Origin: an uncultured Actinomycetota bacterium
GTDB taxonomy: Bacteria; Actinomycetota; Actinomycetes; Mycobacteriales; Mycobacteriaceae
DNA: 64,000 bases
Assembly (NCBI GenBank): GCA_963788075.1
Contig: CAWBFI010000012.1
Coordinates: forward strand, 109,482-173,481
Direction of reading: 5' to 3'
Every line of letters begins with the position of its first letter. Within the stretch, counting starts at the first letter, position 1. The notes beneath the pieces are model-generated. The model ran no database searches, had not been told where the DNA came from, and worked only from the letters and a program-made list of their open reading frames with translations. This document shows, piece after piece, positions 27,025 to 46,031 of this stretch. The translations under genes and the position numbers were made by a program.

Positions 27025-27707
27025 TCGGGGATCAGCACCGCGAACACGCCGCCGAAAAACTCCCACGCCGCCTGACATCCGGCGATCACCGCCGCCAGGG
27101 TCTGCGAATAGGACAACCACACGAACATGTGCCGGGAGTACACCGCGGTGAAGATCAGCGCATACACCTTGCGGCGTCGACCATCAGCACCATCGGTGAG
27201 CATCCCCAGATAGCCGAAATCGATCTGGCACTCCACTCCAGGATCGCCATCCGCGACCCGCACCGTGGTGTCTTTGCGTCCGAAACCGCAACGCTCACTG
27301 GCGAATCGGTGCAACGTCCGATACGGGACCACACACCCCTGCCGGGCCAACAGCGTGTGGATCTTGGTGATCGTCAACGGCCGTTGCTCACCCTCGCCCG
27401 CCACCCACGCTTTGATCTGCCCCTCGAACCCCAGCAGTTGCTCCCAGACCGCGCCATGACCATCTGGCCGGGCTGGACGCACCGCTTCGGCGACCATCCC
27501 GATCAACTCGTCATCGACAGCGCTGGCATCGTCGTCTCGGCACAGGCCGGCGCTCTGCGCGGCCTCCACGTAGCGGCGCACCGTTTTGCGGTCCAGGCCG
27601 CAATGCGCGGCGATCGTGCGGTACCCCGGCGCCGGCAACCCCGCCACCCCCAACCACACCCGCAGTACTTCCCTGATCTCGTTCACACTGACCTCCCGAA
27701 AAGCCAT
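27025..27707 (-). pseudogene. istA: istA 5' fragment
   Basis: MAFREVSVNEIREVLR...CQIDFG...FGGVFAVLIPD, then RIT sequence. Confidence 0.9.
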
Positions 27708-28544
27708 GCCCGCCGACCTCCGTGACTTGAGCTGTCACGGCGATCGAACGAACAAACGAAAAGACCACCGACGCGACGCGCCGGTGGTCCCATAACTGGC
27801 AATCCAGGTGGTCCCATCACCCTGGCAAAAATCAGGTCACAGTGGTCCCAAGCTCATGGCAGGCGACAAGGCGACGGCAGCGCGTCGGCACCGTCACGGC
27901 AGATGTAGGGCGCGAGGTCAGCGCGCCTTGCGAAGGCGCCGGCGACGATAGAGATCCGCCTAGCGCGTTGAGTTGACACGCGAACGGCTCCCCTCCGGTC
28001 ATTGTCACCGGCCCCGTCCGCGGTTGACGTTGGTAAATAGATTGTGTGTGTGTTGGTGCGTACGAGAATCCCCACGAAAATGCGGCGCTTCCGGCGAATA
28101 CCTTCTGGTTGCTGGTAACGACCAGTAGCTCGGAGGGGCGAAGCGGGCTCTCGGCGGCATTACGCAAACATCTTCGGCGAATGGCAGCACAACCGGACAA
28201 ACTCCGGACCTCACGACGGACCCCGGACAATCGCCCAACCTTTGTCCATATAGAGGCCGCACAGAGAGAGGCTGTGCAATCACACCTACTGCGTGACCGG
28301 GATTGCCGGAAGCTCATCTGACGGTCGTCCCCTTGACTCGTTCAGAAAGCACCGGCGTGATACATGACGATAGCGACTTGCAGTTCACTGCGACGGCCTT
28401 GCATGCTTGCCGGACCCCGAAGTGCCGTCCGCGGTGGCACCCAACAGCCCATGAGCCGGGTGTCCCGGGTGGGGGCGTGTGTTGCATGAGCTCATGGTTT
28501 GTGGCAGCCGGCATGGCCGGGGCGACCTACCCCAGACGTCGGTG

Positions 28545-28640
28545 ACCACAGTTCAGCTTGATTCCGGCGTCCTCGAGCACGTTGTGTAACCGCTTAGCTT
28601 CCCAGCGGCCACCCGCGCGTTGCGTTGCTGAGTCGGCGCA
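28545..28640 (-). pseudogene. Short IS110-family transposase remnant
   Basis: Minus-strand reading KRLHNVLEDAGIKL; boundaries approximate. Confidence 0.5.
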
Positions 28641-28694
28641 TGGCGTCGGTTGCGGAACATGTCTGGATTCCAGGTCAGTGATAAAGGTATTGGC

Positions 28695-28700
28695 TAGACT
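28695..28700 (+). promoter_or_regulatory. -10 box (TAGACT) of GT87 paralog 2
   Basis: Within the conserved leader GGTCAGTGAT-N3-GGTATTGGCTAGACT. Confidence 0.5.
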
Positions 28701-28765
28701 CCCGGGCAGCTGAGCTGGGGCGCCCTGCTACCGCTACCGTTTCGCGCCGACCCGAGGAGAAGGCA

Positions 28766-30295
28766 GTGAACCGACCCCTCGAGGTATTTTCTGCCGCGGC
28801 CTCAGCGATCCGGGGGCAGCTGTTGGTGGCCGCCGGTCAGTCTGAGCGCACCATCTTGCTCGGCACTATCCTCGTGGTGTCGGCGGTTTCGGCGGCAAGA
28901 AGTTTCGTTCTTACCCAGTACTTCTCGGTCGATGCGCTTTCCCATCTTGTCGTTTCCGCCCCCGAGGACTGCCTCCTGAACTGGGGCACGCAGGTCGGCC
29001 GACACTGCTTCAGCGACTACGGTTTGACAGCAGACGAGGCGATGCGGCCCAACCCCTGGGAGCCCTACTTCCTCCCCAACTTGAAGCAGATGGGTCAGGA
29101 TCTAGGTGCCTTCTCGGCTCACAACAATTACTCGGCGTCCGGGATGGTGCCGCAGGTGTCCTTTGGGTTTCTGGGTAAATGGCTGCACGCGCCGCAACTG
29201 GGGCTGTTGGGCTTTCTGCTGGCTTTGACGATCGCGTGCCTGACTCCGGCCGTCTGGGCGGCGCGGGGAGCTCGCGGTCTGGAGCGGGTGGTGGTGTTTG
29301 TGGCATTAGGTGTCGCGGCCATGCCGGCGTGGATAGCAATCGATCGGGGCAACTCGGTGGGCTTCTTGGTGCCCATCGCGCTGGTGTTTCTGGTGGCGCT
29401 GTGCCGACGGCGCTGGAGGCTGGCGGCGATCATGGTGGTCTTGGCAGCGCTGGTGAAACCGCAGTTTGTTGTGCTGGCGGTCGCGTTGTTCGCGGCACGG
29501 CAATGGCGGTGGGGCGGCCTCACCGTGGCCGGAGCCGTAATCACCAACCTCGTCGCCTATCTGCTGTGGCCGCGGGACTTCCCGACGACAATCCTGCAGT
29601 CGATCCACAACACCCTCGGCTTCGGTTCGTCCGCATCCCGCGTAGATCCGTTTAACGTGTCCTTGGCCAAGGCACTGCTAATGATCCCCGACCACATCAA
29701 GGCCTATGAAACAGGCGGCGTTCCGGACAGCTTCCTCGCTGGTCCGCGATCAATGCTCGGGTATGTCGTGTTGGTTCTCGTCGTGGTCTGCGTTGTGGCT
29801 CTAGGGCGGCGCATCCCGCCTGTCATGGCGGGTATCGTGCTGCTGGCCACCGCCTCGCTTTTTCCCTCTGTGGTCGCCGCCTACTATCTGGTATTCGCAC
29901 CACCAGTGGCGGCGCTCATTGCCCGAGACCCCGACGGGCCACCAGGATCCGGTATTTTCGATCGACTTGAGACTCTCGGCAGCCGCCGTCGTGTCGTCGG
30001 TCTCTGCGTGAGTCTGGCCGCAGCGCTCTCCATCGCCCAGATGCCGGTCGACGTGGTCTTCATTGGCCAGAAGATGGGAGGCGAGGCTATAGCCCACTAC
30101 ATACTGGGGCTCGTCGTTTCGGTGAGAATCACGCCGGTCCTATGGCTGATTGCCTGCACGGCAATCATTGTCTCGTACGCGCGCAAGCCAGCTCCATCAC
30201 AGCGCAGTGACCGGTGGCCGGAACCCAAAAGCTCCCAGGGTACTGCTGCCAACACCCCACCCCGCCGCATAGCCGTGCCAACGACCGAGTCCTAA
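28766..30295 (+). CDS. GT87/DUF2029-like GT-C glycosyltransferase, paralog 2
   Basis: HCFSDY, IDRGNS, LVKP; paralog of 15575-17113. Confidence 0.8.
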   Translation: MNRPLEVFSAAASAIRGQLLVAAGQSERTILLGTILVVSAVSAARSFVLTQYFSVDALSHLVVSAPEDCLLNWGTQVGRHCFSDYGLTADEAMRPNPWEPYFLPNLKQMGQDLGAFSAHNNYSASGMVPQVSFGFLGKWLHAPQLGLLGFLLALTIACLTPAVWAARGARGLERVVVFVALGVAAMPAWIAIDRGNSVGFLVPIALVFLVALCRRRWRLAAIMVVLAALVKPQFVVLAVALFAARQWRWGGLTVAGAVITNLVAYLLWPRDFPTTILQSIHNTLGFGSSASRVDPFNVSLAKALLMIPDHIKAYETGGVPDSFLAGPRSMLGYVVLVLVVVCVVALGRRIPPVMAGIVLLATASLFPSVVAAYYLVFAPPVAALIARDPDGPPGSGIFDRLETLGSRRRVVGLCVSLAAALSIAQMPVDVVFIGQKMGGEAIAHYILGLVVSVRITPVLWLIACTAIIVSYARKPAPSQRSDRWPEPKSSQGTAANTPPRRIAVPTTES

Positions 30296-30590
30296 CCACC
30301 ATCACCGGCCTCGTTTGTGTGCCCCCGAGCTTGGGGAACAGAGCACGACTGCGGCCGGGAATTGTTAAACATCCCACAGACACCCTCACCGAATCCGATG
30401 TGATGGGCGGCTACAAAAACCTCGCCGATGTCGAGCGGGTCTTCGCGCGTTCAACAGCGAACTCGACGTGCGACCCGCCGGGCATCGTCTGGCCGACCGG
30501 GTCGGTGCCCACATGTCCTTGCGCACGCTGACGGCGCTCATCGAAAGTCCCCAGGTGTGCTCGTTGAAATTCCCCACCTGTGAGCATCGG

Positions 30591-31442
30591 TCAGTGTAGT
30601 GGTTGGCGGGTGCCGGTGGTGGCGCGGCGCAGAGTTTCGGCGGCGGCGTGGTGGTCGCGGAGTCGGTAGGACTCGCCGTCGAGGTTGATGACCACGGAGC
30701 GGTGCAGCAGGCGGTCGAGCATGGCTGCGGCCACGGTGGTGTCGCCGAGGATCTCTCCCCAGGCCCCGACGCCGCGGTTGGTGGTGATCACGATTGAGGT
30801 CTTCAAATACCGTTGGGAGACAACCTGAAACAACGCCGAGGCCGCCTCGGCCGGCAGTGGCAGATACCCGAGTTCATCAATGACCAGCAGGGTGGGCCCG
30901 GCGAAGAACCGCATGGTGGTGGCCCAGCGTCCTTCAATCGCCGCACGATGGCAGCGGGCGGCCAGATCTGCGGCGGTGGTGAAGTAGGTGCGATACCCGG
31001 CGTGTGCGGCCGCTCGCGCCAGACCGACCGATAAGTGCGTCTTGCCTGTCCCCGGCGGGCCGATCAACAAAATGTTGGTCGCTGATTCCAGGTAGCGGCA
31101 GGTCCCCAGTTCGTCGATCATCGCGCGGTCGATCCCGGCGGCGGCATCGACGTTGAAGTCAGCCAGCGTGGCCGGGGTCGGCAGGCACGCGAACCGCAGC
31201 CGCCCGGCCAATCGCCGTGCGGTGCTGGCGTCGACTTCCACAGCCAACAGCCGCTCCAACGCCACGGTCAGCGACAGGCCCTCGGCGGTGGCCTCGTCGA
31301 GCACGGCCGGCAAGGCTTCGGCGGCGGCAGTGAGTTTGAGTTCGGCCAGATGCGCGCGCAGTGCCTGATACCGGCTGGCCGCGGCCGACGGCGATTCGGC
31401 GGCGCTGCGGGCGGTTTTGCCGGTGCGTGAGGTGGGGGTCAT
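30591..31442 (-). CDS. istB: IstB helper ATPase
   Basis: GPPGTGKT, LLVIDELGY, TTNR, AMLDRLLH. Confidence 0.95.
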   Translation of the reverse strand: MTPTSRTGKTARSAAESPSAAASRYQALRAHLAELKLTAAAEALPAVLDEATAEGLSLTVALERLLAVEVDASTARRLAGRLRFACLPTPATLADFNVDAAAGIDRAMIDELGTCRYLESATNILLIGPPGTGKTHLSVGLARAAAHAGYRTYFTTAADLAARCHRAAIEGRWATTMRFFAGPTLLVIDELGYLPLPAEAASALFQVVSQRYLKTSIVITTNRGVGAWGEILGDTTVAAAMLDRLLHRSVVINLDGESYRLRDHHAAAETLRRATTGTRQPLH

Positions 31443-32800
31443 TGCAGGGTCCTTTTCTGGGCGGCCCGCTCGTAGGCGGACAGGTCGATGACAGTGGAAT
31501 CGGTTGACGGGGTGAAGGATTCGATAACAGATGGATCGATGCTTGCCAGTTGACGCAGCTGGGCGGCGGCGGCTTTGGCCACCGGGCCCGGTGGGATGCG
31601 TTCCTTGCGTCGATGCGGGCGGCCGGTGGCCGCGGTGGCCATCGCCGCGGCATCCAAAGCGATGACGTGCCCGCTGTCGCGGACCATCACCCCGAGCCCG
31701 TCAGCGGCCATCCGATGGCGGGCGATGACGATCCCGCTGGGGGTGGCGATATCGCAGAATTCACCGCCGAGCGGGTGCGAAACCACCACTTGGGCTGCGG
31801 CCAGTTCGGGTGGCACCGAGTAGCGGTTACCGCGGTAGGACACCATCGCCTGGCGCGAGGCGGTGCGTTGTTCGGACACGATCACCGGATACGGCACCGC
31901 CGGCGGTGGGGACAGCGGCTCAGATTTGGCGACGGTGGCCACCGACGAGCGCCCATCGGCGGTCGCACGGATGCGGGTATCGCCACGCACCCGCGCGAAG
32001 CGGTCCACGCCGGCCTGGGCCGCCTCGACCGCCACATCGTCGGCCAGAGTGCGCCACCAGCGTTGCGCCGCGGTGTGGTTGACCTTCTCCACCACCCCCT
32101 TGCGGTTGCCGCGCCGCGCCGGGCAGATCGCCACCGACACGCCGTAGTGCTTGGCCACCCCCGCGAACGACGCGGTCACCCGCCCGCTGCCGGGGTCACA
32201 TACCGTGGCCATCCGGTCAAAGCGCCACACCCGCGATACGCCACCCAGGCCGCGCACGACCCGGTCGATCGCGGCGACCAGGTGCGGCTGATCGGTCGAC
32301 GGCGACAACGCCGCCCGCCACTTCCCGGAATGGGCCAGCGACCCGACCAACAGGTACGCGGTCTTGCCCCACCCCCAGGATGCCGGCGGATCGGGCAATT
32401 CCAGCCAGTCCCATTGGGTTTCGTCCCCGGGTGGATGCGGGATCACGGCGTTGGGTCGTTCGGTCGCGGTCCGGCAGGCCTCGCAGACCGGACGCAGGTT
32501 CCGTTGGCGGATGTTGCGGGTCAGGCTCTGATACGACAGCTCGAACCCGAGGTCCTCGAGTTCGTCGAACAGGGTGCGGCCCCACAGATGCGGGTCCTCG
32601 ACCAGGCGGGCGGTGACGTAGTCGACGAACGGGTCGAACGGGTCCGGCGACGGCCGCGCCCGCACCCCCGGTTTTTGTTCACCGTTGAGATACCGGCGGA
32701 CCGTCTTACGGTCGAACCCGGTGTGGCGGGCGATCGCCGAGATCGACCAACCACGTTTGCGCAGGGCATGTACTTCCACATCGTCCTCCCATGTGAGCAT
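31439..32800 (-). CDS. istA: IstA DDE transposase
   Basis: HTH start MLTWEDDVEVHALRKRG, TQWDW, RFDRM, RKGVVE. Confidence 0.92.
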   Translation of the reverse strand: MLTWEDDVEVHALRKRGWSISAIARHTGFDRKTVRRYLNGEQKPGVRARPSPDPFDPFVDYVTARLVEDPHLWGRTLFDELEDLGFELSYQSLTRNIRQRNLRPVCEACRTATERPNAVIPHPPGDETQWDWLELPDPPASWGWGKTAYLLVGSLAHSGKWRAALSPSTDQPHLVAAIDRVVRGLGGVSRVWRFDRMATVCDPGSGRVTASFAGVAKHYGVSVAICPARRGNRKGVVEKVNHTAAQRWWRTLADDVAVEAAQAGVDRFARVRGDTRIRATADGRSSVATVAKSEPLSPPPAVPYPVIVSEQRTASRQAMVSYRGNRYSVPPELAAAQVVVSHPLGGEFCDIATPSGIVIARHRMAADGLGVMVRDSGHVIALDAAAMATAATGRPHRRKERIPPGPVAKAAAAQLRQLASIDPSVIESFTPSTDSTVIDLSAYERAAQKRTLQ

Positions 32801-33274
32801 GAGAAAGCGCGCCTCCTTCAACACGGCAACTGGCGTCAGACACCAGCAGCATCGAAGGAGGCCCGCCCTTCTCGGCGGAGCCACACGGGTGGGGAATTTC
32901 GATGAGCGTCAGTGGGGAAATTCAGCGAGCGTCGTCAACGCTGTGCTACTACCTCAGCTGGCACACGAAACAGGCGTTGGCGCGGGTCCTATTCCAGGAC
33001 AACGACAACCCGCCGCCGCGGCCACCGCCTTCGCCGCCCAGCGCTCTGACTAAGCACGCAGGAAAGCCGCACGTACCGCACAGCCCGCTCGTCGACCGGT
33101 CAATAGTCTGTGTGCTCATCCACAGGTTCTGACCATTGCTCTCGCCGACCTGGCCAGCATCTACGCCAACCAGATTCAACCCATCGAGAACATGCCGGCA
33201 TTCACGCAGACCACCACCCTTACCCCGCTGCAGCTTAGAGCCTTCGGAGGCCTCGGCGTCTCTCACCGCTTGGG

Positions 33275-34846
33275 CTACACGGAGGTAGTAAGCCACACCA
33301 CCCACACCCAAAAGCACAGCTCAAGGCACGCTCGCCAACCGATCAGGGGGAACTTCGGATCGCAAGGAAGCCGAGTAGGAGTCCGGTCTAGGTGCGGGCC
33401 GGGCCCGGCCGGCCACGGGTCAATGCAACGTGAGGGAGCCGGCTTGCGCGCGTACGAGACAAGAACTGCTGCGCACGCAACCAGCCACAGGACCGGCGTG
33501 AGGGCCACTGTGGTGACTGCCACGGGGATGTGGCCGACTATGCCGCCCGCCCCGTTCTGGCCGGCTATCGGCGCCTGGATCACCAAATTCGGCAGGGTGA
33601 TTTGGACAATGCTGAGTGCCGCCGCCAGACTCACGCAGATGCCGACTGCATGGCGGCGATCGCTGAGAGGCTCGAGTCCATCGAAGATTCCGAATCCTGG
33701 TGGCCCATCCGGGTTCCGGGCCAGCAGCGCAGCTATTGGTAATACGAATACGAGGTAGTAGCGGCCGCTCTCGGCCGGAAAAAGCGAAGCGGTGGCCAAC
33801 AGCACAATGCCCGCCATGACAGGCGGGATGCGCCGCCCGACAGCCATAACGCAGACCACGACGAGAACCAGCACGACATACCCGAGCATTGATCGCGGAC
33901 CAGCGAGGAAGCCGTTCGGTATGGCGCCCGGGCCATGGGCCTTGATCATATCGGGGATCCAGAGGAGCCCCTTGGCGAAGGACACGTTAAAAATATCTGC
34001 ATGAGATTCGAACTCATCGAAGCCGAGGGTGTTGTGGATCGACTGCAGGATTGTCGTCGGGAAGTCCCGCGGCCACAGCAGATAGGCGACGAGGTTGGTG
34101 ATTACGGCTCCGGCCAGGGTGAGGCCGCCCCACCGCCATTGCCGTGCCGCGAACAACGCGACCGCCAGCACAAGAAACTGCGGTTTCACCAGCGCTGCCA
34201 AGACCACCATGATCGCCGCCAGCCTCCAGCGCCGTCGGCACAGCGCCACCAGAAACACCAGCGCGATGGGCACCAAGAAGCCCACCGAGTTGCCCCGATC
34301 GACTGCTATCCACGCCGGCATGGCCGCGAGACCTAACGCCACAACCACGGCCACCCGCTCCAGACCGCGAGCCCCCTGCGCCGCCCAGACCGCGGGAGTT
34401 AGGCAGGCCGTCGTCAAAGCCAGCCGATAGTCCGATAGCCCCAGTAGGGGGTTATGCAGTGAATTGCCCACAAACCCAAAGAACATGTGTGGCCACATCC
34501 CAGCGGCCAAGTAGTTATTGTCAGCCGACTTGAAGTTGGGGAGAGGGTAGGGCTCCCAGGGGTCGGGTCTCATCCCCAAGCTCAGCACCATCGAATAGTC
34601 GCTAAAGCAGTGTCGGCCGACCTTCATGGGCCAATCGAGGAGGCAATCCTCAGGGACAGAAACAAGAGAGGAAAGCACATCGATTGAGTAGTAACGGGCG
34701 AGCACAAAGGCCGTGAGAACCGAAACGGCCGACGCCAGCAGGATAGTGCCGAGCAAGATGGTGCGCTCAGACTGGCTGGCAACCAGCAACAGCCGCCCCC
34801 GGATCGCCGAGACTGGACCCTGGAGCAGCTCGAGGGGTCGGTTCAC
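33275..34846 (-). CDS. GT87/DUF2029-like GT-C glycosyltransferase, paralog 3 (C-terminus runs into the IS1634 end)
   Basis: HCFSDY, VDRGNS, LVKP; last 28 codons lie in IS sequence. Confidence 0.8.
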   Translation of the reverse strand: MNRPLELLQGPVSAIRGRLLLVASQSERTILLGTILLASAVSVLTAFVLARYYSIDVLSSLVSVPEDCLLDWPMKVGRHCFSDYSMVLSLGMRPDPWEPYPLPNFKSADNNYLAAGMWPHMFFGFVGNSLHNPLLGLSDYRLALTTACLTPAVWAAQGARGLERVAVVVALGLAAMPAWIAVDRGNSVGFLVPIALVFLVALCRRRWRLAAIMVVLAALVKPQFLVLAVALFAARQWRWGGLTLAGAVITNLVAYLLWPRDFPTTILQSIHNTLGFDEFESHADIFNVSFAKGLLWIPDMIKAHGPGAIPNGFLAGPRSMLGYVVLVLVVVCVMAVGRRIPPVMAGIVLLATASLFPAESGRYYLVFVLPIAALLARNPDGPPGFGIFDGLEPLSDRRHAVGICVSLAAALSIVQITLPNLVIQAPIAGQNGAGGIVGHIPVAVTTVALTPVLWLVACAAVLVSYARKPAPSRCIDPWPAGPGPHLDRTPTRLPCDPKFPLIGWRACLELCFWVWVVWLTTSV

Positions 34847-34908
34847 TGCCTTTCCTCCCGTTTACCCGACACGGTGACGCAAGCAGCGCCGCAGCTCGGC
34901 TGCGCGGC

Positions 34909-34914
34909 AGTCTA
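34909..34914 (-). promoter_or_regulatory. -10 box (TAGACT) of GT87 paralog 3
   Basis: Same leader as paralogs 1 and 2; IS630 begins 24 bp further upstream. Confidence 0.5.
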
Positions 34915-34983
34915 ACCCGATACCCTCATCACTGACCTAGTGCTGTGTCCTGGATTTAGCTGACTCTTTCAAGGGCGATGCGG

Positions 34984-36434
34984 GAGGTTGTCCCGTTCTT
35001 CGTGGAATTTGAGGTGGCGGTCCCTCACCTGAGGCCTGCCTGATGGTAGGTCTTCGGGTGAACGACCAAGAACACCCACGAAGGAAGGGACCGCCATGAG
35101 AACCGTACCTACTGTCCGCCTCGCTGAGACGACTGACGCCGCCGTACTGCCCGATCTGCCGGAGGAGATCGTCCTGGCGCTGACCGACATCGCTGGTGCG
35201 GCCCGAGAGGGGCTGCTGGCGATGAGCGTGGCCGCCGGGATGGCAGTGATGCGGGCACTGTTTGAGGCCGAGATCGCCGAGGTGGTCGGACCGAAAGGCA
35301 AGCATGATCCGAACCGGGCCGCGGTGCGTCATGGCGGCGGGCGCGGCTCGGTCACGCTGGGCGGGCGTCGGGTGTCGGTGGATCGGCCGCGGGCCCGCAC
35401 CTGCGATGGGCACGAGGTGCCGCTGGCCTGCTATACCCACTTCGCTACCGAGGATGTGCTGACGGCCGTGGTGATGGAGCGGATGCTGGCCGGGGTGGCC
35501 ACCCGCCGGCACGCGCGGGTCGCCGAGCCGGTTGGCACCGTGGTCGACAAGGAGACGAAAGCGACTAGCCGCTCGGCGATTTCGCGCCGATTCGTCAAAC
35601 AGACCGAGACTGCGCTGGCCGAGTTGATGGCCCGCGACCTGGTGGGCGAGGACATCAAGGTGCTCATGCTTGATGGTGAGCACATGGCCGAGCGCTGCGT
35701 GGTAGTGGCGCTGGCCATCACCGCCGACGGAACCAAAAAGCCGGTCGGGCTGTGGGACGGTTCCACGGAGAATAAGACCGTGGTGCGTTCGCTGTTGGCC
35801 GACCTGGTCGAGCGTGGCCTGCGCTTCGATGACGGGCTGTTGGTGGTCGTCGACGGCGCCAAGGCGCTCGCGGCCGCGGTACGAGAGGTGTTCGGCGCCA
35901 AGGCCATCATCCAAAGATGCACCCTGCACAAGCGGCGGAATGTCGCCGAGCACCTGCCCGACAAAGACAAGCAGTGGGTAGATGCCAAGCTAGTCAAGGC
36001 ATTTGGTCATGCCGACCCAGACACCGGGCTGGCCAACGCCAAAAAGCTTGCCGCGCAACTGGATAAGAGCTACCCGGGCGCGGCCGCCTCACTGCGTGAA
36101 GGCCTGGAGGAAATGTTCACCGTCGCGCGGCTGGGCATCGAAGGCCGGCTGGCCAAGAGCCTGACCACCTCCAACCCGGTCGAGTCGATGATCTCGATAG
36201 CCCGCACCACCAACCGTAATGTCACCCGCTGGCGCGACGGGCAGATGGTGCTGCGCTGGACCGCGGCCGGCATGCTCAACGCCGAACGGTCGTTCCGTCG
36301 CATCAAGGGCTACAAGCAGATGCCCCAGCTCGCCGACGCCCTGCGCCGACACGCCAACCCCGACACCGTCGGTACCGCCGCATAGAGTTCACCATGGATC
36401 GCCACCAAAAATCCACGCGACTCGGGACATGCTC
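34984..36434 (+). mobile_element. IS256-family element A
   Basis: GAG...CTC imperfect IRs; 8-bp target duplication CGATGCGG (34976-83 / 36435-42). Confidence 0.92.
35096..36385 (+). CDS. IS256-family transposase
   Basis: LMLDG, VVDGAKAL, QRCTLHK, TSNPVES. Confidence 0.93.
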   Translation: MRTVPTVRLAETTDAAVLPDLPEEIVLALTDIAGAAREGLLAMSVAAGMAVMRALFEAEIAEVVGPKGKHDPNRAAVRHGGGRGSVTLGGRRVSVDRPRARTCDGHEVPLACYTHFATEDVLTAVVMERMLAGVATRRHARVAEPVGTVVDKETKATSRSAISRRFVKQTETALAELMARDLVGEDIKVLMLDGEHMAERCVVVALAITADGTKKPVGLWDGSTENKTVVRSLLADLVERGLRFDDGLLVVVDGAKALAAAVREVFGAKAIIQRCTLHKRRNVAEHLPDKDKQWVDAKLVKAFGHADPDTGLANAKKLAAQLDKSYPGAAASLREGLEEMFTVARLGIEGRLAKSLTTSNPVESMISIARTTNRNVTRWRDGQMVLRWTAAGMLNAERSFRRIKGYKQMPQLADALRRHANPDTVGTAA

Positions 36435-36735
36435 CGATGCGGCCGCGTGCGACTTTATCGAGGATGGATTGGGCGGTCGCTGTCCACACGTAAGGCCGTG
36501 GGTCGTCATTGTGTGCGTCGATGTATTCCTGGATCGAGGCGATCAGGTCGGGAACGGAATGAAATGCCCCGCGCCGCAACGCCTTGTCGGTCAGCTCGCG
36601 AAACCACCGTTCCACCAGGTTCAACCAGGATGAGGATGTCGGGGTGAAATGCAGGTGGAACCGAGGATGATTGTCCAGCCAGGTGCGGACGTCTTGGTGT
36701 TTGTGGGTGGCGTAGTTGTCGCAGATCAGGTGGAT
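36435..36735 (-). pseudogene. IS630 transposase, 3' fragment
   Basis: HLICDNYATHK...FTPTSSSWLNLVERWF. Confidence 0.88.
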
Positions 36736-36765
36736 TAAAGTTCCCCCGGTTCTCCGGAGACTTTT

Positions 36766-37114
36766 CTATCTGGATTCGGCTGGCTCGGGTTGGAGCCTAT
36801 CCGGTTGGTGTTCGTCGTGTTCGGTGTAGTAGGCCTCCTCGTATTCGTCGGGTGAAAGTCCGTTAAGACCGGCTTGGATGCGGCGCGGGTTGTACCAGCC
36901 GTCGATGTAGCGGAACAGTGCCGCTTCTGCTTCCGCTCTGGTAGCGAAAGTGATTGCAGGCCAGTATATTAGCTCGATTTTCAGGGTTGACCACAGGTTT
37001 TCCGCCAACGCATTGTCGAAGCTATCCCCGACGCTTCCGGTGGAGGGGGCGATGCCGGAGTCGCACAGTCGCTGGGTGAACCGGACCGCAGTATATTGAC
37101 AGCCCTTGTCGCTA
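36766..37114 (-). pseudogene. IS3-B OrfB, 3' fragment
   Basis: SDKGCQYT...GSVGDSFDNALAENLW. Confidence 0.88.
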
Positions 37115-37232
37115 TTAAGCCGGATCCGGCTTAATAGCGATTATGCCGAGGTTTGCTTTAAGCCGAGGATCTGCGGAGATGGCCTGCGCTCGTGGTGGTT
37201 GCTGGTGGATTTCTCGGCTTAACGTTTCGCGG

Positions 37233-38273
37233 CTATCGCAGGCTGTAGAGGGTTTGGAGTTGGTCTTCGGTGAGTGGCTCGGTGGCCGCGGTGTTGATGG
37301 CGGGGGTGGCGGCGTTGATGGCTTGTCGCATCATGTCCAGGGTCGCAAAGGCATAGAACGCTGCTGTGGTGGAAGCGTTTTCGTGGCCGAGGAGGCGCAT
37401 GATGATCGGCAGCGGGATACCCTGCTGGTAGAGATCCATCGCCTTGGTTTTGCGCAGCAGGTGGCAGTGGATGTTCGCCGGGATCGAAAGGCATTGAGCA
37501 CGAGCGGATTCGGCGGCTTGCTTGAGCACGGCGGCGACCGTGTCAGCGGACAGTTCGGCAGGTCGCCCGCGGTGCAGACTGTAGAACAATGGCCTGGTCG
37601 CGGGGAGTTTGGTGATATTCGGGTGGAACTCATCGAGGTAGACGTGCAGGTGCTCGACGGTCTTCTCGGTGAGCGGTACGACGCGGGTCTTGTTGCCCTT
37701 GCCGGTAAGCAGGATGTGCCCGGGCTCGGTCAGGCACAGATCCTGCAGGGTCAAGCCCGTGATCTCGCCCACGCGAGCCGCGGTGTCGTAGAGCAGGATC
37801 AGCAGCATCCGGTTCCTCCGAGATTTCGCTGTTTGCCCGGTGAACGCGGCAAGGATCGCACGCGTTTGAGCTTCGGTGAGGTACTCGATGGGCCTGCGGG
37901 GGCCAGCCGGCGCTTTGAGTGCTTTGGCTGATTGGCTGAGCGCGACGAGCGTGAGATCTTCGTAGGCCGCGTAGGTCAGGAACGCTTTGACCGCGCTCAG
38001 ACGCAACCTGACGGTCTTGGGCGTGTAGTGCCGCTGATCGGTCATCCAGGTCAGCCATCCTTTCAGGTGCCGGCGGTCGAAGTGATCGAAGCTGACGTGC
38101 TCACGTCCGATGTGCTCGGCCTCGGCGAGGTAGTCCAGGAAGCACTCCAGGCTGATCCGGTAGGCCTCAATCGTTTTCGGCGACAGTCCTCTGGTCTTGG
38201 GCATGTAGGCGTGCAGATAATCGCGGGCGAACCTGAAGAAGTCCGGTGCGCCGGTATGTGGGTCGCGTCTCAT
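37233..38273 (-). CDS. RitC tyrosine recombinase
   Basis: [38 protein letters not shown]. Confidence 0.9.
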
Positions 38274-39223
38274 CAGAATCCCACCTGCGGTAGCAGGGAC
38301 TGGCGTTGTCGGGTGATGCCGGCGTAGGTGGCCATGAAATCGGGCGACGTGTGCACGTAGTAGTACGTGCTCTCAAAGGTTGCGTGGCCCATGTAACGAG
38401 ACAGGTAGGGCAGCATCGCGGTGACGTCGTCGCCGGCGGTCATCCATCGCTGGATGTTGGCGTAGGCGAAGTGATGCCGGAAATCGTAGGGGCGTGGCTG
38501 TTGGCCGGCCGCGGGCCGGGGCAGCCCGGCCTGGTCCCAGATGCGGCCGAACATTTTCCCGACCGTTGCCGCGCTGACCTGGTTACCGGTAGCAGAGACG
38601 AAGAACGTGCGACGCGAGGCGAAATGTGCTCGCGACGTCCGGTCGCACGTGTCGAGGATCTCGATAACCCGATCAGTCAGCGGCAGCCTGCGGCTGCGAT
38701 GTCCTTTGGACCAGACGATGTCGATGTGCCCGGCATCAAGGTCGACCTGACCGGTCTGCAGAGCGCGGGTTTCGCCGGTCCGCAGCCCGCACGAGTGCAT
38801 CAGCGTGAAGAACGCGACCGCCTGCCACCGCCACGGGGATGGTGCCTGTAGTTGTGTTGCGGCGGTGAAGAAAAACTCGATCTCACGCCGGGCCAACAGA
38901 TAGGCATGCGCGGCAACGAAAGAGGCTTTCCACCGGTCGGAGAGCACATAGGCGTCGTTGGCCCCGTTGGTATTCAGCCACCGGCCGACGTCACGGATGT
39001 AGGACATCCAGGACCGGTAGCGGCCGCAACGTTGCAGCTGAACACCGACCCAGCCTTCGACAGTTTCTTTGTCGAACACCGTGCGGTCGTGCTCGGCGCA
39101 GTAGGCGTCGAACTTCCTCAGGTACCAGATGCGGGAAGCGCCAGTGAATCCCATGTTCGCCTTGAACGCCAGGTACGCATCCAACTCGGTGGCGAACGCG
39201 CTGGTGAAGCCGTGGCCACTCAT
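38273..39223 (-). CDS. RitB tyrosine recombinase
   Basis: [35 protein letters not shown]. Confidence 0.9.
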
Positions 39224-39313
39224 GACCGCACGGCTTCTGGGACCGGCAGGACGCAGTCGAGCAGACGTAGCCGGTCGACGCTCATGTAGAGGTTCGTCGA
39301 TTCTTCGCTGGCG
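39220..39313 (-). pseudogene. RitA of RIT-B, 3' fragment
   Basis: [30 protein letters not shown]-stop; ATGA overlap with ritB. Confidence 0.85.
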
Positions 39314-39390
39314 TGTTTGATATACGGGTGATCTGAGGCGGGTCGACCACCCGGGCGTGGGTCGGTTGACCGACGAGCGAGGAGACCCCG

Positions 39391-40443
39391 ATGGACCAGT
39401 TTATGCCGTGCTTGATCCGTCACCATCGTGGGGTGGAGCTCGTCGCGATCACCCTGGGGCATCCGCTGCTGGATGACTATCTGGCCTTCGTTGCGGCGCG
39501 TGCCAGGACCAATACCTGGCTGGCGGTGGCGTCGGATTTGAAGATCTTCTTTGGTGTGGTTGCTAAGCAGCCAGCGCAGGTCAACGCTGCAGATGTCTTC
39601 GCGTTCTTGGCATCTCAACGTACTTCCCGCTTGGGCGAGCGGGTGGTGCGATTGGAGGACGGCGAGCCGGGCCTGGCGGCGCGCACGATCGCCCGCCGGT
39701 TGTCCAGTGTGCGTGGCCTGTACGCCTATCTCGCGGCCCGGGGTGACACCGGCGTGAGCCGCAACCCGGTTCCGACCAGCCTGGCCGCCCGCCGCCCCGG
39801 TGCTCGGCGCGGCAAGGGCGGGGTGCCGTTGATCCGCACCCCTCGTACGCTGCCGCGGGTGCTGGCGCCAAGCGAGGTCGACGCGCTGCGGGCGGTGCTG
39901 CGCACTCATCGCGACCGGGCCATGGTCGAGGCGATGCTGCTGGGTGGCCTGCGACGCTGCGAGGTGCTCGGTCTGCGCCTCGACGACGTCAACGTCGGCG
40001 AGCGGCGGGTGTTCGTGGCCGAGGGCAAGGGCGGTCGGCAGCGGATGGTGCCGGTATCGGCGCGGTTTTTCGCCTCGCTCGGGGACTATCTGGATCAGGA
40101 GTGGCCGCGAGGGTCGAGTGATCGGGTGTTCGTGGTGTTGAAGGGGCCGCGGCGTGGTGAGCCGTTGTCTGCGGCGGGTCTGGATGAGATTCTCGACGGT
40201 GCGCGCGGTCGCGCCGGGCTGACTCAGGCGACGTGCCATCAGCTGCGGCATACCTGTTTCACCCGGCTGCGGGAGGCCGGGATGGCACTGGAGGCCATCC
40301 AAGCCCAGGCCGGCCACGCCTCGATCGACTCCACCCGCATCTATCTGCACCTGGCCAACGACTGGTTGGAACGGGAGTACCTGCGAGCCGCCGAAGCGAT
40401 CGAGGCGCAGGTCGTCGCGTCCGGCGAGGCGGCCGAGGAATGA
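39391..40443 (+). CDS. TnpA-like tyrosine recombinase
   Basis: LGGLRRCE, GKGGRQR, CHQLRH, AGHASIDSTRIY; AGGAG RBS. Confidence 0.88.
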   Translation: MDQFMPCLIRHHRGVELVAITLGHPLLDDYLAFVAARARTNTWLAVASDLKIFFGVVAKQPAQVNAADVFAFLASQRTSRLGERVVRLEDGEPGLAARTIARRLSSVRGLYAYLAARGDTGVSRNPVPTSLAARRPGARRGKGGVPLIRTPRTLPRVLAPSEVDALRAVLRTHRDRAMVEAMLLGGLRRCEVLGLRLDDVNVGERRVFVAEGKGGRQRMVPVSARFFASLGDYLDQEWPRGSSDRVFVVLKGPRRGEPLSAAGLDEILDGARGRAGLTQATCHQLRHTCFTRLREAGMALEAIQAQAGHASIDSTRIYLHLANDWLEREYLRAAEAIEAQVVASGEAAEE

Positions 40444-42267
40444 ACCGGTCACCAGCACATCGCCACGACATCGAGGAGCTCGTCGAGGCGTATCGGGCCG
40501 ACCTCGTCGCGGCCGGGATGTTCGCCGGACACCCGGTGACCTCGGTGGCGCGCACGTTTCTCACCCGCGTTGGGGTGGCCGGCTGGTCGGCGTTGCCGCT
40601 GGCATCGCAGTGCGCATTGCCGCTGAAGGACCGACGGGTGGTCGGTTGGCTGATCGTGACGGGACGGCTGCGGCCCAGCCCCGACTATCTCGTGGCGTGC
40701 CGGCCCTACCTCGGCGAAGTCGCCGCCCATCATCACCGCAGGTTCCACGAACGGTTCACCGCGACCTCCGCCGAGCTCGGGTTTGATTCCCTCGTGACCC
40801 GCCTGCAGTGGTCCGCCCTGGCCAAGGTGGCAGCGCTGGCCGGGCTGACTCCCCAGCGGCTGACCCAGCCGGTGATCGACGCACAGCGAAAAGCGTTGAC
40901 CGCCGCGATAACTCGCCACCGACCCGACAGCCACGGCGCCAAGGCGCTCAGCGCGGCGCTGTTCGGTGCGCAGACCACTTTGTTCCACCTCGGCGTCCTT
41001 GACACCGCTCCCCGCAAAACAGCCCCAGACCGCTCGGCCGAGCGGGCCGCCCAGTGGGCGGCGGTCCCGCCACGGCTGGCCACCACCCTCACCGGGTACA
41101 TCGCCCAGACACGGCTGTCGCTGCGGGCCTCGACAATGGTGCGCGTCGAGGGCGTGCTGCGGGAGTTCGCCGGCTGGCTGGCCGTCAACGCCCCCGAGGT
41201 GCTCTGCGTCGCCGATCTGCGTCGGGCACACATCGAGGCCTACAAGCTGCACCTGTCCACCCGGCCCTCGGCCCGCGGCGGCCGGTTGTCCAAGATCAGT
41301 CTCGCCGAACACCTTGGCACCCTGCGCACCTGCTTCGAGCGGCTCACCGAATGGGACGGCGACGACATCCCCGCCCGCGTGCTCATGTTCCCCGGCGACC
41401 TGCCGCTGCGCGACGACCCGCTGCCCAGATTCCTCGACGACGCCGCGTTCACCAAGCTCCTGCAGGCCGCGCGCGCCGACGACGACCCGTTCGTGCGACT
41501 GTGCGTGGAGTTCCTGGCCCGCACCGGCCTGCGCAAGGGCGAATTCCTCGACCTCACAGTCGATTCCGTCGTGCAGATCGGCGCCGCGTACTGGTTGCAC
41601 GTGCCGCTCGGCAAACTGCGCACCGACCGCTACATCCCCTTGCATCCCCAACTCAAGGATCTCCTCGACACCTGGATCGCCACTCGACCCACCAGCCTGC
41701 GCAGCCGCTACCTGTTCGTCGAGTACGGCCAACGCATCGGCGAAGGCCGCGTCGACCGGGCAGTAGCCAAAGCCGCGAAAGCGGCTGGCATCGGCCGTGT
41801 TTCGCCCCACCGCCTCAGGCATACCTTGGCGACCCAGGCGATCAACCGCGGCATGACCCTCGAAGCCCTGGCCGCGTTGTTGGGGCACCGATCGATGCGG
41901 ATGACCCTCGTGTACGCCCGAATCGCCGACCCGCACCGTCGCCGACGAATACTTCTCCGTCAGCGAAAAGGTCGAAGCCCTCTACAACCAACCACGCGCA
42001 CTGCCCGCCGACGCCGAAGGCGCCGAAATGCGCAAGCTCCGTGTCGAGATGCACCGCCGGATGCTCGGCAACGGCTACTGCGCCCGACCCGTCGGCCTGG
42101 ACTGCCACTTCGAATCCATCTGCGAATCCTGCACTTTCTTCCAGACCACCATCGAATTCCGCCCGACCCTGCAGGCACAACGCGACGACGCCGCCGAGAA
42201 AGGACAACTCGGCCGCCAGAAAGTGTTCGACGGACTGCTCGCCCGACTCGATCAGACCGCCTCCTGA
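40440..42267 (+). pseudogene. TnpB-like large tyrosine recombinase, +1 frameshift near 41931
   Basis: TGLRKGE, PHRLRHT, LGHRSMRMTLVYARIAD, then in another frame RMLGNGYCARP..CHFESICESC. Confidence 0.82.
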
Positions 42268-42369
42268 CAAGACGCACTTGATGCGATGAAGGGGCGGGGC
42301 CTCCGCTCCTCGTGACGTTCCCGGCGGATGCTGGGGGTGTTCACTTTCCACGAATCATGGGAGGCCCCT

Positions 42370-43398
42370 ATGAACGAGTATGACGGCAAGCAGTTCGTCG
42401 GGATCGATCTGCATCGGCAGCGGTCGGTGATCGTGCGCCAATCGGAGTCCGGTGAGCAGCTCTCAGCGGTACGGATCGTCAACGACCCGGTCGCGTTGGG
42501 ACTGCAGCTCGAGGACGCCGGCTCCGACCCCGAGGTGGTGCTCGAAGCAACGTATGGATGGTACTGGGCGGTCGATGTGCTGCAAGCCCACGGAGCGCAG
42601 GTACATCTGGCGCACCCATTGGGAGTCAAAGGGTTTCGGTACAGAAGGGTGAAAAACGACGTGCGCGACGCCGGCGATCTGGCTGATCTGCTGCGGATGG
42701 GTCGACTGCCCGAGGCCTGGATCGCACCACCGGCGACACGCGAGCTGCGGGAGTTGGTGCGCTATCGGGCCAAGCTGGTCGCGATCCGATCCGGGCTCAA
42801 AGCCCAGGTCCATGCCGTACTGGCCAAAGCCGGGGTGTTGATTGCGGTATCGGACCTGTTCGGAGTCGGTGGGCGCAAGCGACTCGCGAAGGTGCCGCTA
42901 GCCACCGCCTACGCCGAACGGGTCCGCTCACTGCTGGAACTGATCGATACCCTCGATGGCCACGAGGCACGTTTCGCCGCGTTGATCGCCAAACGGCTCG
43001 ACGCTGACCGCGGCTATCAAGCCATCCAGCAGGTACCCGGTATCGGAGTGACGCTGGCGGCGGTTTTTGTCGCCGAGATTGGTGACGCCGGCCGCTTCAC
43101 CGGTCCAGCCCAACTGTGCTCTTGGGCCGGACTGACCCCGCGCCACCGCGAATCCGACACCGTCGTACACCGCGGGCATATCACCAAACAGGGCTCCAAA
43201 CTGGTTCGTTGGGCAGCGATCGAGGCGGTGCAGCGCCACCCGACGACGGCCAAGATCGCGGCCGACAAAGACCGCATCGAAGCTCGCCGCGGCAAAAACA
43301 TCGCCAAGGTTGCCGCGGCACGCAAACTACTCACGCTGGTCTACTACGGGCTGCGCGACGGCCACATCCGCGCGCTCGACCGTGCCAGCGCAGCGTGA
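42370..43398 (+). CDS. IS110-family DEDD recombinase
   Basis: VGIDLH, VLEAT, KNDVRDA, VPGIG, WAGLTP. Confidence 0.93.
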   Translation: MNEYDGKQFVGIDLHRQRSVIVRQSESGEQLSAVRIVNDPVALGLQLEDAGSDPEVVLEATYGWYWAVDVLQAHGAQVHLAHPLGVKGFRYRRVKNDVRDAGDLADLLRMGRLPEAWIAPPATRELRELVRYRAKLVAIRSGLKAQVHAVLAKAGVLIAVSDLFGVGGRKRLAKVPLATAYAERVRSLLELIDTLDGHEARFAALIAKRLDADRGYQAIQQVPGIGVTLAAVFVAEIGDAGRFTGPAQLCSWAGLTPRHRESDTVVHRGHITKQGSKLVRWAAIEAVQRHPTTAKIAADKDRIEARRGKNIAKVAAARKLLTLVYYGLRDGHIRALDRASAA

Positions 43399-43797
43399 GC
43401 ACTCCGGACGCAACCCGTGCGCGGCCGCTTTTTTGTCTGACCCCCCAACGGCGTGGTCGCCCGCTTGATTGACCCCACGTGTTGCTACCGCACCGCTCCA
43501 TGCCCACCACAGCTGGGCGAAGGGATGACCGGCAGCCGGAACAGTCCGGCCCTGCCCCAAAGTATCTGCACCATCACGGTTTGGAGAAGGCCCACAACCA
43601 CACATCCGCCCGGCTGATCTTCCCGACGTCCGTCGAAAGCATGCATCGGCCCGGTCCGGGGTCAAGACCGTTCGTCCTCGCTACGCTGCGGGCGCTCCGT
43701 CTTGACCCCGGCCCTTACCCGATGCCGCCTACACGGAGGCCGAAAGCCAGCACAATCCCAGGTCGCCAACGTCTTGACAGAACCCCACCCCTTCAGG
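43399..43797 (+). ncRNA. Candidate bridge/seek RNA region in the IS1111-1 3' non-coding region
   Basis: About 400-nt structured region; hairpin 43658-43709 conserved with IS1111-2; RNA boundaries not determinable. Confidence 0.45.
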
Positions 43798-43819
43798 GAT
43801 GACAAGATCACCCGCATAA

Positions 43820-44925
43820 TGGCCGAGCACTGCCGCGATCGTCGGTAGCGGAACCGCTGCGGCCAGCAGCCGGGATGCGGCGTTGTGGCGCAGCAATCGG
43901 GTTCCCGCCTTCAGCTTGTTCACCCCCGCTTTCCGGAATGTCTCAACGGTCACCCGGTGCACCGTCGCGTGATCGCCCAGCCGGGTGTGTGGGGCTACCG
44001 AACGCAGGAATAGGTGATCATCGCCGGAGCTGGGACGCTCGTCGAGAACATAGGTGGCCAGCTTGCCCAGCAGCAAGGCCGGCAATGGCAGCGTCAGCGG
44101 GTTGCCCGTCTTCTGCTGCACGAGGCCGATTGTGTGCCCACGCCAGTCGACGTCACCCATCCGTAGCGCCACGATGTCACAGGCCCGCAATCCCGTCGAT
44201 AATGCGAGCAAGGTGATCGCGGCGTCTCGCGCGCTGACCACCCCCGACGCACAGGCCCGAACAACCCGTTCCTCGTCGCCATCGCCGAGGGCGGGGACTA
44301 TCGCGTGAAAGCGTTTGATGCCAGCCAGAGTCAGCGCATTGACAAGGTCGGTGCGGCCGGTGAACTTGAGGAACGGACGAAAGTTCGACACCACCCAAAA
44401 CAGCGACGACCTGGCCCACCGGTCCAGTAGGGATTCCAAAAACGCCAGGACACTGGCGCCATCCGCCCGGTCCAGCACTGCGATCCCGCGTGCTTCCAGG
44501 AACACCAGGTAGCTACGCGCCACCCTTCCATAGGCCTCGCGGGTGGCCGGCGCAAGACCGCGCCGGCCCATCTCGGCCTGCCAGGCGGCGTCCAGTGCAA
44601 CGAAGTCGCTGCTCTCGGGCCGTGGACCTCCGCCGCCGCGGCCACGAACCGCCAGGTCCACCCGCCCGGTCTGCACATACGAGTCGAACACCGTAACAAG
44701 ACGCCGGTAATCGAACCGGCGCTGCGGGCTGAACCGACCGGTGCGCACACTGGTCGTCATCGAGGCGAACTCCGCACCCAGACCGGTGGAATACTCACGC
44801 CCCAAGGCGAACTCAGTCAGCGCCTTGATCGTCTTCGCGTACTGACCAACTGTCGATTCCATGTAGCCGGCCGCACGCAGCTCCGCCACGACAACCGCGC
44901 CGATCCCACGGACCGTCGTATCCAT
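43820..44925 (-). pseudogene. RitA of RIT-B, 5' fragment
   Basis: STGLRACD, QQKTG, TRLLRHNAAS...IAAVLGH, then inserted element. Confidence 0.88.
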
Positions 44926-45064
44926 GACCGTCTCCTTCCACAGACGTAGAGATACGACGGACGCTAACCACCACCCGAAACGTTAAGCCGAGAAATCCAG
45001 CGACACCCCCCACGAGCGCAGGCCATCTCCGCAGATCCTCGGCTTAAAGCAAACCTCGGCATAA

Positions 45065-45651
45065 TCGCTATGATGGACCAGCTGACCGTCACAGATATCG
45101 CGGGAGAAGATCGCGTAGTCGAGCGCCGAGATCACCAGGTCGGTGTCCGCGCGAGGGCCGCTGCGCCAGCCAACCACCTTGTTGGAGAACGCATCACGAA
45201 CGCTGGCCAGCCACAGCACACCCTCGCCGGTGAGGATGCGAGTCAGATCGGCCACCCACTTGCGGTTGGGTGCAGTCGCGGTGAAGTCGCGGTCGAGCAG
45301 ATCCGGCGCGGCCGTGTGCTTGGGGTTTTGCCGGGTGGACCCGTGCTTCCAGCCCTTGCGCAGATAGGCGCCGCGGCGGCCGTTGACGCGCATGATCCGC
45401 TCCACCCGCTTGCGGGAGACCCACACCCCGCGGCGGCGCAGCTCCAGCCACACCCGCGGTGAGCCGTAGGTGGCGGCGAACTCGTGAGAGCCGCGGATCT
45501 CATCGATCAGCGTCAGCAGCCCGGCGTCCTCACGGGTCCGCCGCGACGGTTGCTGGCGCGCCTTGCGCCACCCGTAGTAGGTCGAGGCTGCGATACCCAG
45601 GACCCGTAGTACGAGACCGACCGAGAAGTCATGCGCATCAACGAAGTTCAT
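45065..45651 (-). pseudogene. IS3-B OrfB, 5' fragment
   Basis: TYGSPRV, KWVADLT, GQLVHHSD, then RIT sequence. Confidence 0.88.
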
Positions 45652-45959: not shown

Positions 45960-46031
45960 TGAGACTTCCTCCCTCCAGGCTTACAACAGCAAACCCGGTT
46001 TGGAAGTCTCCGGAAAAGCGGGGGAAGCACA

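Follow-up and report, generated by a model that had tools for sequence, protein, structure and literature searches.

The 64,000-nucleotide stretch of DNA analyzed here (the window, C12:109482-173481 of a 6.56 Mb actinobacterial assembly with 65% GC) consists of densely nested mobile elements, two of which, RIT-A and RIT-B, are members of the recombinase in trio (RIT) family. RIT-A is inserted in istA of an IS21-family insertion sequence (IS) and RIT-B in orfB of an IS3 element, and in both cases the element splits the codon of an Asp residue that aligns with the second acidic residue of the DDE catalytic triad. On the basis of the junctions, of relatives in other genomes and of genome-wide scans for the target, we consider it very probable that each RIT lineage homes site-specifically to one extended DNA sequence, which encodes the β-strand and the second catalytic Asp of a DDE transposase.

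RIT elements (ritA-ritB-ritC) are known from Cupriavidus metallidurans CH34, pHG1, and others (Van Houdt 2009/2012, PMC3414803), and RIT-A and RIT-B are like them in having three overlapping, same-strand tyrosine recombinase genes, a length of ~3.4-3.5 kb, terminal inverted repeats, and multiple identical copies per genome. The assignment to the family is based on gene content, inverted repeats, and copy behavior, and was checked by gene order and domain hits. Pfam matches and the reading of open reading frames (ORFs) show that each element has three neighboring tyrosine recombinase genes, all on the same strand and slightly overlapping (by 1-4 bp in RIT-B). The ritB and ritC genes of both match Pfam Phage_integrase, and HxLRH and the Tyr are visible in the RitA readings. 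A repeat search finds terminal inverted repeats of 97 nt with 97% complementarity in RIT-A, where an 84-nt core lies inside the 97-nt arms, and of 96 nt with 95% complementarity in RIT-B. The genome holds seven copies of RIT-B and one of RIT-A. RitC of RIT-A is 98% identical to that of a relative in another genome (locus L001), and RitC of the RIT-A lineage is ~27% identical to RitC of the RIT-B lineage.

Insertion of RIT-A and RIT-B in transposase genes

Read on the istA coding (minus) strand, and with a caret marking the point of insertion, the first RIT-A junction is GTGCTGATC CCCCGA^TTATGTGGCGCGCCACATAA TCCGGG TTATGTGCCC..., which rightward of CCCCGA can also be written CCCCGA^TTATGTGG... 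on the istA sense strand. The second junction is ...GGGCACATAA CCCGGA^CAATTTGAAG, with the preceding bases CACATAA. Joining the flanks restores the istA reading ...FFGGVFAVLIPDNLKPV..., and the junction reads together with the joined translation bear out the initial annotation, which had placed the split of IS21 istA at VLIP-D-NLK. The target gene encodes a helix-turn-helix (HTH) domain, and its 3′ part encodes Mu-transpos_C_2. In a phmmer search, LIPDNLK aligns on VLFDNMK of IS5376 IstA (8Q4D/8B4H), which places the split Asp on D187; the cryo-EM structure of IS5376 IstA has the DDE triad D124, D187, and E233 (PMC10122671). This alignment agrees with the earlier claim that the split residue is the second of the triad. 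An intact IS21 is also present in the window, within 28766-34846 (istA 31439-32884, istB 30591-31442, inverted repeats 30526-30582 and 32884-32940), where it sits between two inverted GT87 glycosyltransferase genes that are 86% similar. Its IstA has FDRM instead of DN at the second Asp, and it is free of RIT elements.

In the case of RIT-B, the junctions read CATCA TAGCGA^TTATGCCGAGG... (starting with TTATGCC) and ...CCTCGGCATAA TCGCTA TTAAGCCGGATCCGGCTTAA TAGCGA^CAAGGGC. Two intact copies of this same IS3 (on C8 and C4) supply the empty site, CATCA TAGCGA CAAGGGC (CATCATAGCGACAAGGGC), which translates to VHHSDKG(CQY). These intact copies show a single TAGCGA, so insertion added a second 6-mer along with the element, a 6-bp duplication. 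Junction reads and intact copies together confirm the split of orfB at VHHS-D-KG, and direct reading of the junctions of both elements agrees with the initial annotation that the last two bases of each 6-bp spacer are the GA of the Asp codon. The Pfam rve match ends at the split Asp, at profile position 73 of 102. In an alignment of four IS3 OrfB proteins, H194, D196, G198, Y201, and T202 are invariant, and a profile of the four weakly matches retroviral integrase cores (E = 0.002-0.005), aligning HSDkG with their TDnG and keeping register at the first D and the E. A phmmer search of IS3 OrfB against PDB sequences returned no match. On these alignments, the split Asp is assigned to the D of the rve hSDxG motif (h-S/T-D-x-G), which supports its earlier identification as the second DDE acidic residue.

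The seven RIT-B copies lie in three different types of IS3 orfB, every one at H-S/T-D: at VHHSD^KGCQYT in the window copy, at VIFHTD^QGGEYT in three copies, and at TIHHSD^AGSQYT in the other three. When aligned, the three IS3 types are 33-36% identical. The junction 6-mers are TAGCGA and CACCGA in varying combinations, and a Thr-type CACCGA is found at one junction of a Ser-type IS3. Such mixed junctions are what carry-over from the donor predicts if RIT-B hopped between IS3 species. Comparison with copies of 3418 bp elsewhere in the genome defined an insert nested in the window copy (Table 1). The genome also contains a solo, slightly degenerate RIT-B palindrome (C1:457111-457130) with the flanks TCGCTA and CAGCGA, where two different IS3 orfB genes meet head to head by their 3′ halves. 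Recombination between two RIT copies probably left this scar, and crossovers at such sites probably also rearrange the genome. Five loci among the relatives (L003, L082, L090, L094, and L118) resemble it in that both flanks are alike.

Table 1. Features of RIT-A, RIT-B, and their target genes in the window
Feature	Position	Strand	Description
istA, 3′ part	19115-19935	-	resumes (K)PRVERTVQYVR, catalytic-Glu motif; Mu-transpos_C_2 domain
Large-serine-recombinase element	19936-23405		3.47 kb; 683-aa recombinase; splits the istA of RIT-A at SPKDK^PRVER
istA, middle part	23406-23528	-	C of Asp codon, then NLKPVIAAADAVNP...SPKDK; second element cuts at 23405
RIT-A, entire	23529-27030		splits IS21-family istA at VLIP-D^NLK
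RIT-A crossover 6-mer S	23529-23534	+	TCCGGG (istA sense strand CCCGGA); abuts inverted-repeat end
RIT-A core	23535-26998	+	3464 bp; inverted repeats 23535-23618 and 26915-26998, start TTATGTGCCC
RIT-A genes	ritA 23626 to ~24835; ritB ~24830-25909; ritC 25906-26913	+	ritA frameshift near 24500; Pfam Phage_integrase/SAM-like; three-frame reading
RIT-A internal 6-mer S′	26999-27004	+	CCCGGA
RIT-A palindrome	27005-27024	+	20 bp, perfect; TTATGTGGCGCGCCACATAA
RIT-A outer 6-mer S2	27025-27030	+	TCGGGG (sense strand CCCCGA)
istA, 5′ part	27025-27707	-	Met to GA of second catalytic Asp codon, ...FFGGVFAVLIPD; from ORF, joined translation, and IS5376 IstA alignment
IS3 hosting RIT-B, whole	~36736-46031
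IS3 orfB, 3′ part	36755-37108	-	C of Asp codon, then KGCQYTAVRFTQRL...
RIT-B, entire	37109-45070		trio on minus strand; splits IS3 orfB at VHHS-D^KG
RIT-B outer 6-mer S2	37109-37114	-	TAGCGA
RIT-B palindrome	37115-37134	-	20 bp; TTAAGCCGGATCCGGCTTAA
RIT-B S′	37135-37140	-	TCGCTA (orfB sense strand)
RIT-B core	37141-45064	-	inverted repeats 37141-37229 and 44976-45064, start TTATGCCGAGG
RIT-B genes	ritA 44925 down to 43820 and 39315 down to ~39220; ritB 39223-38273; ritC 38273-37233	-	ritA interrupted
Two-integrase (Tn554-like) element	39316-43819	+	nested in ritA of RIT-B at AVLGH^ASEEST
RIT-B 6-mer S	45065-45070	-	TAGCGA
IS3 orfB, 5′ part	45065-45651	-	end ...GQLVHHSD; Pfam HTH_21, and rve truncated at profile position 73
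IS3 orfA	45648-45959		upstream of orfB; Pfam HTH_Tnp_1

Relatives in other genomes and the architecture of the junctions

We sampled 80 loci from several phyla with RitC relatives of RIT-A (62-98% identity) and 80 metagenome loci with RitC relatives of RIT-B (80-97% identity); the loci were selected via the recombinase, not via the target. At each locus, a script located the inverted repeats and the junction palindrome, rebuilt the empty site, and translated it, and the target ORFs were clustered. The target frame was set from the GC content of third codon positions (GC3) with Pfam checks, choice of the longest ORF having been rejected because antisense ORFs win in high-GC DNA. Target genes were counted as distinct when they shared <90% amino acid identity.

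The 25 IS3 insertions resolved for the B lineage follow the pattern H-[STA]-D^x-G without exception and affect at least 18 distinct orfB genes; a 91% identical RIT-B on a Mycobacterium riyadhense plasmid is inserted at ...D^AGSQYT. For the A lineage, the corresponding site is x-x-D^N(L/M/E)K, in 18 distinct istA genes. Members of this lineage are also found, by Pfam check, at the second Asp of an IS630-type DDE_3 gene (CWD^NLNTH) and of Mu-like genes with rve and Mu-transpos_C domains (YCD^NGSVF and LVD^RGSAF). In the RitC tree, istA targeting is scattered through the A lineage, and the remaining targets are nested inside. The initial annotation saw the most conserved codons in other mobile elements as the targets of RITs, a proposal that holds up in >40 independent, non-identical target genes. 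Insertions are not spread evenly along the transposase genes and instead occupy one codon per lineage. TTATG-like half-sites, when looked for by eye, are found in none of the targets and do not explain the choice of site.

Every resolved copy has the architecture X-S-[IR end...ritABC...IR end]-S′-palindrome(20 bp)-S2-Y, where IR is the inverted repeat, and the S′-palindrome-S2 module is present in ~60 related elements. Both S and S2 are crossover sequences of 6 bp, and they represent a duplication of the 6-mer at the target. The two are frequently unlike, with one native to the target and the other carried from the previous site: S equals S2 in 10 of 25 copies in the B lineage and 6 of 18 in the A lineage, and the two differ in ~60%. 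We count 13 distinct 6-mers in the B lineage and 21 in the A lineage, all ending in GA on the sense strand because they are taken from Asp codons. At one A-lineage target, a polymerase gene described below, the native 6-mer ends in AA and the carried 6-mer in GA, so the two spacers need not be identical. The 6-bp spacers vary, are carried from site to site as crossover sequences, and do not determine specificity.

The orientation of the insertions is equally regular. The architecture reads on the orfB sense strand in 25/25 copies of the B lineage and on the istA antisense strand in 18/18 of the A lineage, with the palindrome always on the same side of the target gene. In contrast, the palindrome adjoins ritC in 12/25 and 8/18 copies, respectively, so that the ritABC body lies either way, in about half of the copies each. 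Because the strand of the formula is fixed while the body is divided between both directions, the orientation of the target is read and that of the body is not.

Recognition of the target

To locate the sequence that guides insertion, position matrices covering 42 bp around the site were trained solely on loci from other genomes and scanned over 13.1 million positions of this genome together with the rebuilt empty sites. The RIT-A empty site has the top score, 40.9 bits, with a different istA second at 24.1 bits. For the three RIT-B targets the scores are 33-51 bits; then come unoccupied IS3 H-S/T-D sites at 37.0, 35.9, and 24.4 bits, and the best match that is not recognizably H-S/T-D-x-G scores ≤16.8 bits. 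Since the bare GACAAC (Asp-Asn) occurs 3989 times in the scanned genome, a longer context is needed for targeting. These scans locate the specificity in extended DNA sequence, lineage by lineage. An apparently intact IS3-type rve ORF in the window (18344-19051) carries one of the high-scoring sites, TTCCA TAGCGA CCGCGG (VVFHSDRGSTYT), near position 18729; it scores 37 bits and is unoccupied.

How elements with different spacers reach the same codon had been left unexplained in the initial annotation. This question is now largely resolved: the spacers are not the address, and the two lineages recognize different extended DNA in opposite orientation. Because their RitC proteins are ~27% identical and opposite target strands are used, the shared codon appears to reflect convergence on one conserved protein motif. 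Comparison by eye of the target half-sites with the half-sites of the inverted-repeat ends and the palindrome reveals no similarity.

Several observations weigh against this interpretation. The nucleotides that are contacted cannot be separated by sequence alone from the constraint imposed by the protein motif. RitA may be the reader of the target: when RitC identity is equal, its divergence is ~4 points greater if two elements have different targets, and that of RitB is not, though the pairs are non-independent, and we do not rely on this weak signal. High-scoring IS3 sites are unoccupied (window ~18729 and the intact IS3 copies on C8 and C4), so good RIT-B sites are not saturated. Some A-lineage insertions are in IS3 genes at DVFSR^Y, which is conserved and non-catalytic, and others are outside transposases, in a Y-family polymerase (IMS, umuC-like) gene at VLS^NNDGC and in a small Zn-finger-like gene at RNG^KGD; the off-type targets of this lineage also include a membrane protein. 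A third RIT type of the genome, RIT-C (4.4 kb, C9:226068-230461), lies in the C-terminus of orfA (SVALWV^KEAMRR; n = 1), at a site that looks conserved but is not a catalytic codon, in the same IS3 copy that bears a RIT-B. Three IS3-T2::RIT-B copies with near-identical flanks and identical 6-mers may be composite duplications. Finally, ritA is frameshifted in RIT-A and interrupted in the window copy of RIT-B, and both window copies are probably non-autonomous or defective.

It is possible to suggest that two RITs simply landed in an IS-rich island and split the same kind of codon by chance. In a window so densely nested with mobile elements, insertion in some transposase gene is unsurprising, and with n = 2 the initial annotation had kept chance open. 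Even for two genes of ~300-400 codons, however, the chance of hitting exactly that codon is ~1e-5, and replication in >40 target genes removes the reservation: the same codon is split in at least 18 IS3 and 18 istA distinct genes from unrelated samples in fixed orientation, and matrices from other genomes place these sites first genome-wide. The probability that we are left with for coincidence is negligible. Insertion of weak specificity (at a motif like NNNNGA^CAAC), after which selection would retain the survivors in dispensable mobile-element genes, is in keeping with the shortness of the invariant core, the frequency of GACAAC, and the umuC-like, Zn-finger-like, and membrane protein targets of the A lineage. 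Such a process would permit any position in a transposase and either orientation, whereas a single nucleotide position and a single orientation are observed per lineage, and no insertions are found elsewhere in these target genes. We judge it highly unlikely.

The number of real events would also be small if IS::RIT composites had spread as units, through trans-mobilization by intact IS copies, horizontal transfer, or homologous recombination of one IS copy with another. The three IS3-T2::RIT-B copies may have arisen in this way, and the copy on C5 duplicates the window RIT-B, including its nested insert. Nonetheless, the targets were de-duplicated at 90% amino acid identity, and the divergence of the three IS3 types of the genome, the variation of 6-mers among copies in the same IS type (T3 in C9, C5, and C6), and the different body orientation of copies in the same target (L025 vs L026) all argue against few events, making this explanation very improbable. 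Lastly, an internal RNA or DNA guide complementary to the target, as in the bridge RNAs of IS110, would suit the finding that the target half-sites are unlike those of the inverted-repeat ends and palindrome, so that the specificity of end binding is not the target reader. For RIT-A and RIT-B alike, the 42-bp target shares an exact stretch of at most 9 nt with the complete element, which equals the shuffled mean, and there is no non-coding space beyond the ~90-bp inverted repeats. These data leave guided targeting only a slight chance.

Considering these data, we favor homing by recombination. RIT-A and RIT-B would integrate through tyrosine-recombinase site-specific recombination, with one codon and one fixed orientation per lineage. 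The mobile form may be a circle with the joint IR end-S′-palindrome-S-IR end, which would be a long perfect palindrome containing two inverted, equivalent core sites, either of which could recombine with the target. A fixed target orientation and a free body orientation are expected if the mobile form is a circle with such a joint. Strand exchange would be staggered by 6 bp and would tolerate heterology, as in Tn916, Tn554, and SE (strand-biased circularizing integrative) elements, and the target half-sites may be read by a subunit distinct from those that bind the ends, possibly RitA. The two lineages would have arrived at the Asp codon independently, perhaps because the DNA encoding the second Asp is the most conserved and most widely shared in genes that are dispensable, multi-copy, and horizontally moving. 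Insertion is expected to destroy the host transposase, and a safe harbor combined with inactivation of competitors, as suggested in the initial annotation, is a plausible adaptive rationale.

Other recombinase elements and relation to known systems

Other recombinase elements of the genome are inserted in comparable places. The element nested in ritA of the window RIT-B (~4.5 kb) encodes one 350-aa and one ~680-aa recombinase and resembles an actinobacterial Tn554-related class (PMC3414803); it interrupts the conserved His box that immediately precedes the catalytic Tyr. In this genome it occupies the L-G/K-H box in three integrase genes, ritA of RIT-B among them. Further copies are at C1:479376-482340, C3:312434-315338, and C5:19310-23813, of which the C1 copy reads ML-K-H^ASAAMTLDVYADLF and the C3 copy has a homologous H^AS-side flank. 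The large-serine-recombinase element that splits the istA of RIT-A has copies at C6:345028-348543, C3:759417-762888, and C9:202144-205621, before KPRVER, KGIIER, and KGVVER of IstA-like genes. These sites are a few codons upstream of the catalytic Glu (K-x-x-V-E-R) in four IstA-like genes of at least three types. Among 301 genomes of the same order, relatives of this element gave seven matches, on short contigs and with uninformative flanks. A fourth RIT type, RIT-D (C9:340557-343903, L161/L162), has the same S/palindrome architecture, with the sense-strand 6-mer CCACGA, and interrupts a phage-type integrase gene in its HxxR catalytic box (ITFHD^LRHSYAT).

A second two-integrase element lies in the window at ~46250-49740 (genes 46384-47451 and 47324-49405), inside an IS630-like transposase gene at a conserved motif, and a copy of it (C6:12974-16612) occupies the corresponding position in a different, homologous IS630-like gene. 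Two tandem 197-nt direct repeats that are 97% identical (50499-50899) follow downstream of the IS630-like gene fragment. Near one end of the first two-integrase element is an IS110-family IS (~42277-43805; DEDD transposase 42328-43398) with at least 12 copies in the genome. The window thereby holds a four-deep nest, in the order IS630-like gene, IS3, RIT-B, two-integrase element, and IS110. The cases of RIT-A, RIT-B, RIT-D, the two two-integrase elements, and the serine-recombinase element raise the possibility, which we put forward tentatively, that homing to catalytic or signature codons of mobile-element enzymes is a general niche of several unrelated recombinase elements, beyond RITs.

Isolated cases of RIT insertion in a Tn6049-like transposase gene and in radC are on record; apart from a short inverted repeat and a palindrome, the same work (PMC3414803) identified no convincing recombination sites. 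A 2023 comparison lists target specificity and movement of RITs as "not tested" (PMC10214605 Table 1). The elements studied here differ from those accounts in the codon-precise, lineage-specific target, the 6-bp crossover, and the S′-palindrome-S2 module. We found neither a target rule for RITs nor this junction architecture described in the accessible literature, though Ricker et al. 2013 may mention insertion sites.

In Tn554, SE, and Tn916, spacer homology is likewise not needed, and the new site receives 6 bp from the donor, termed a "fingerprint" or coupling sequence (PMC10214605). These elements are tyrosine-recombinase transposons like RITs, and they differ in their protein sets (TnpABC, IntA-Tfp-IntB-Srap, and Int-Xis, respectively, for Tn554, SE, and Tn916) and lack a palindrome at the junction. 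The 6-mer carried by SE and Tn554 is always on one side, whereas in RITs it may be at either junction. Membership of the Tn554 family was ruled out for RIT-A and RIT-B, which have three recombinases of ordinary size and no TnpC-like gene; the 6-bp carry-over alone is similar. The classical systems of lambda Int, Cre, and Xer differ from RITs, where spacer identity is not required.

With regard to the choice of target, homing endonuclease genes, inteins, and group I and II introns also home to DNA for conserved, often catalytic motifs of widespread genes. They do so by means of nucleases or reverse splicing, and the host gene is restored by splicing. RITs do not splice and they inactivate the gene, so they need dispensable targets. 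Other mobile elements serve as landing sites for Tn5053/Tn402 (the res-site hunters), for IS1111-attC elements, and for IS4321/IS5075, which insert in Tn21 inverted repeats. Those elements target non-coding recombination sites or ends, whereas RITs target the coding sequence of catalytic residues.

RIT elements are widespread and, to our knowledge, their movement has never been reproduced. A codon-precise attachment site, a 6-bp crossover with donor carry-over, and a junction palindrome make the mechanism directly testable, and the data also point to an integrase family with evolving target choice in which spacer identity is not required. If the niche proposed above is real, it would amount to a bacterial guild of insertion-sequence hyperparasites whose target readers, in RITs perhaps RitA, would be diversified, heterology-tolerant integrases. 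The convergence of distant RIT lineages on the same catalytic residue suggests a parasitic layer on insertion sequences that silences their transposases.

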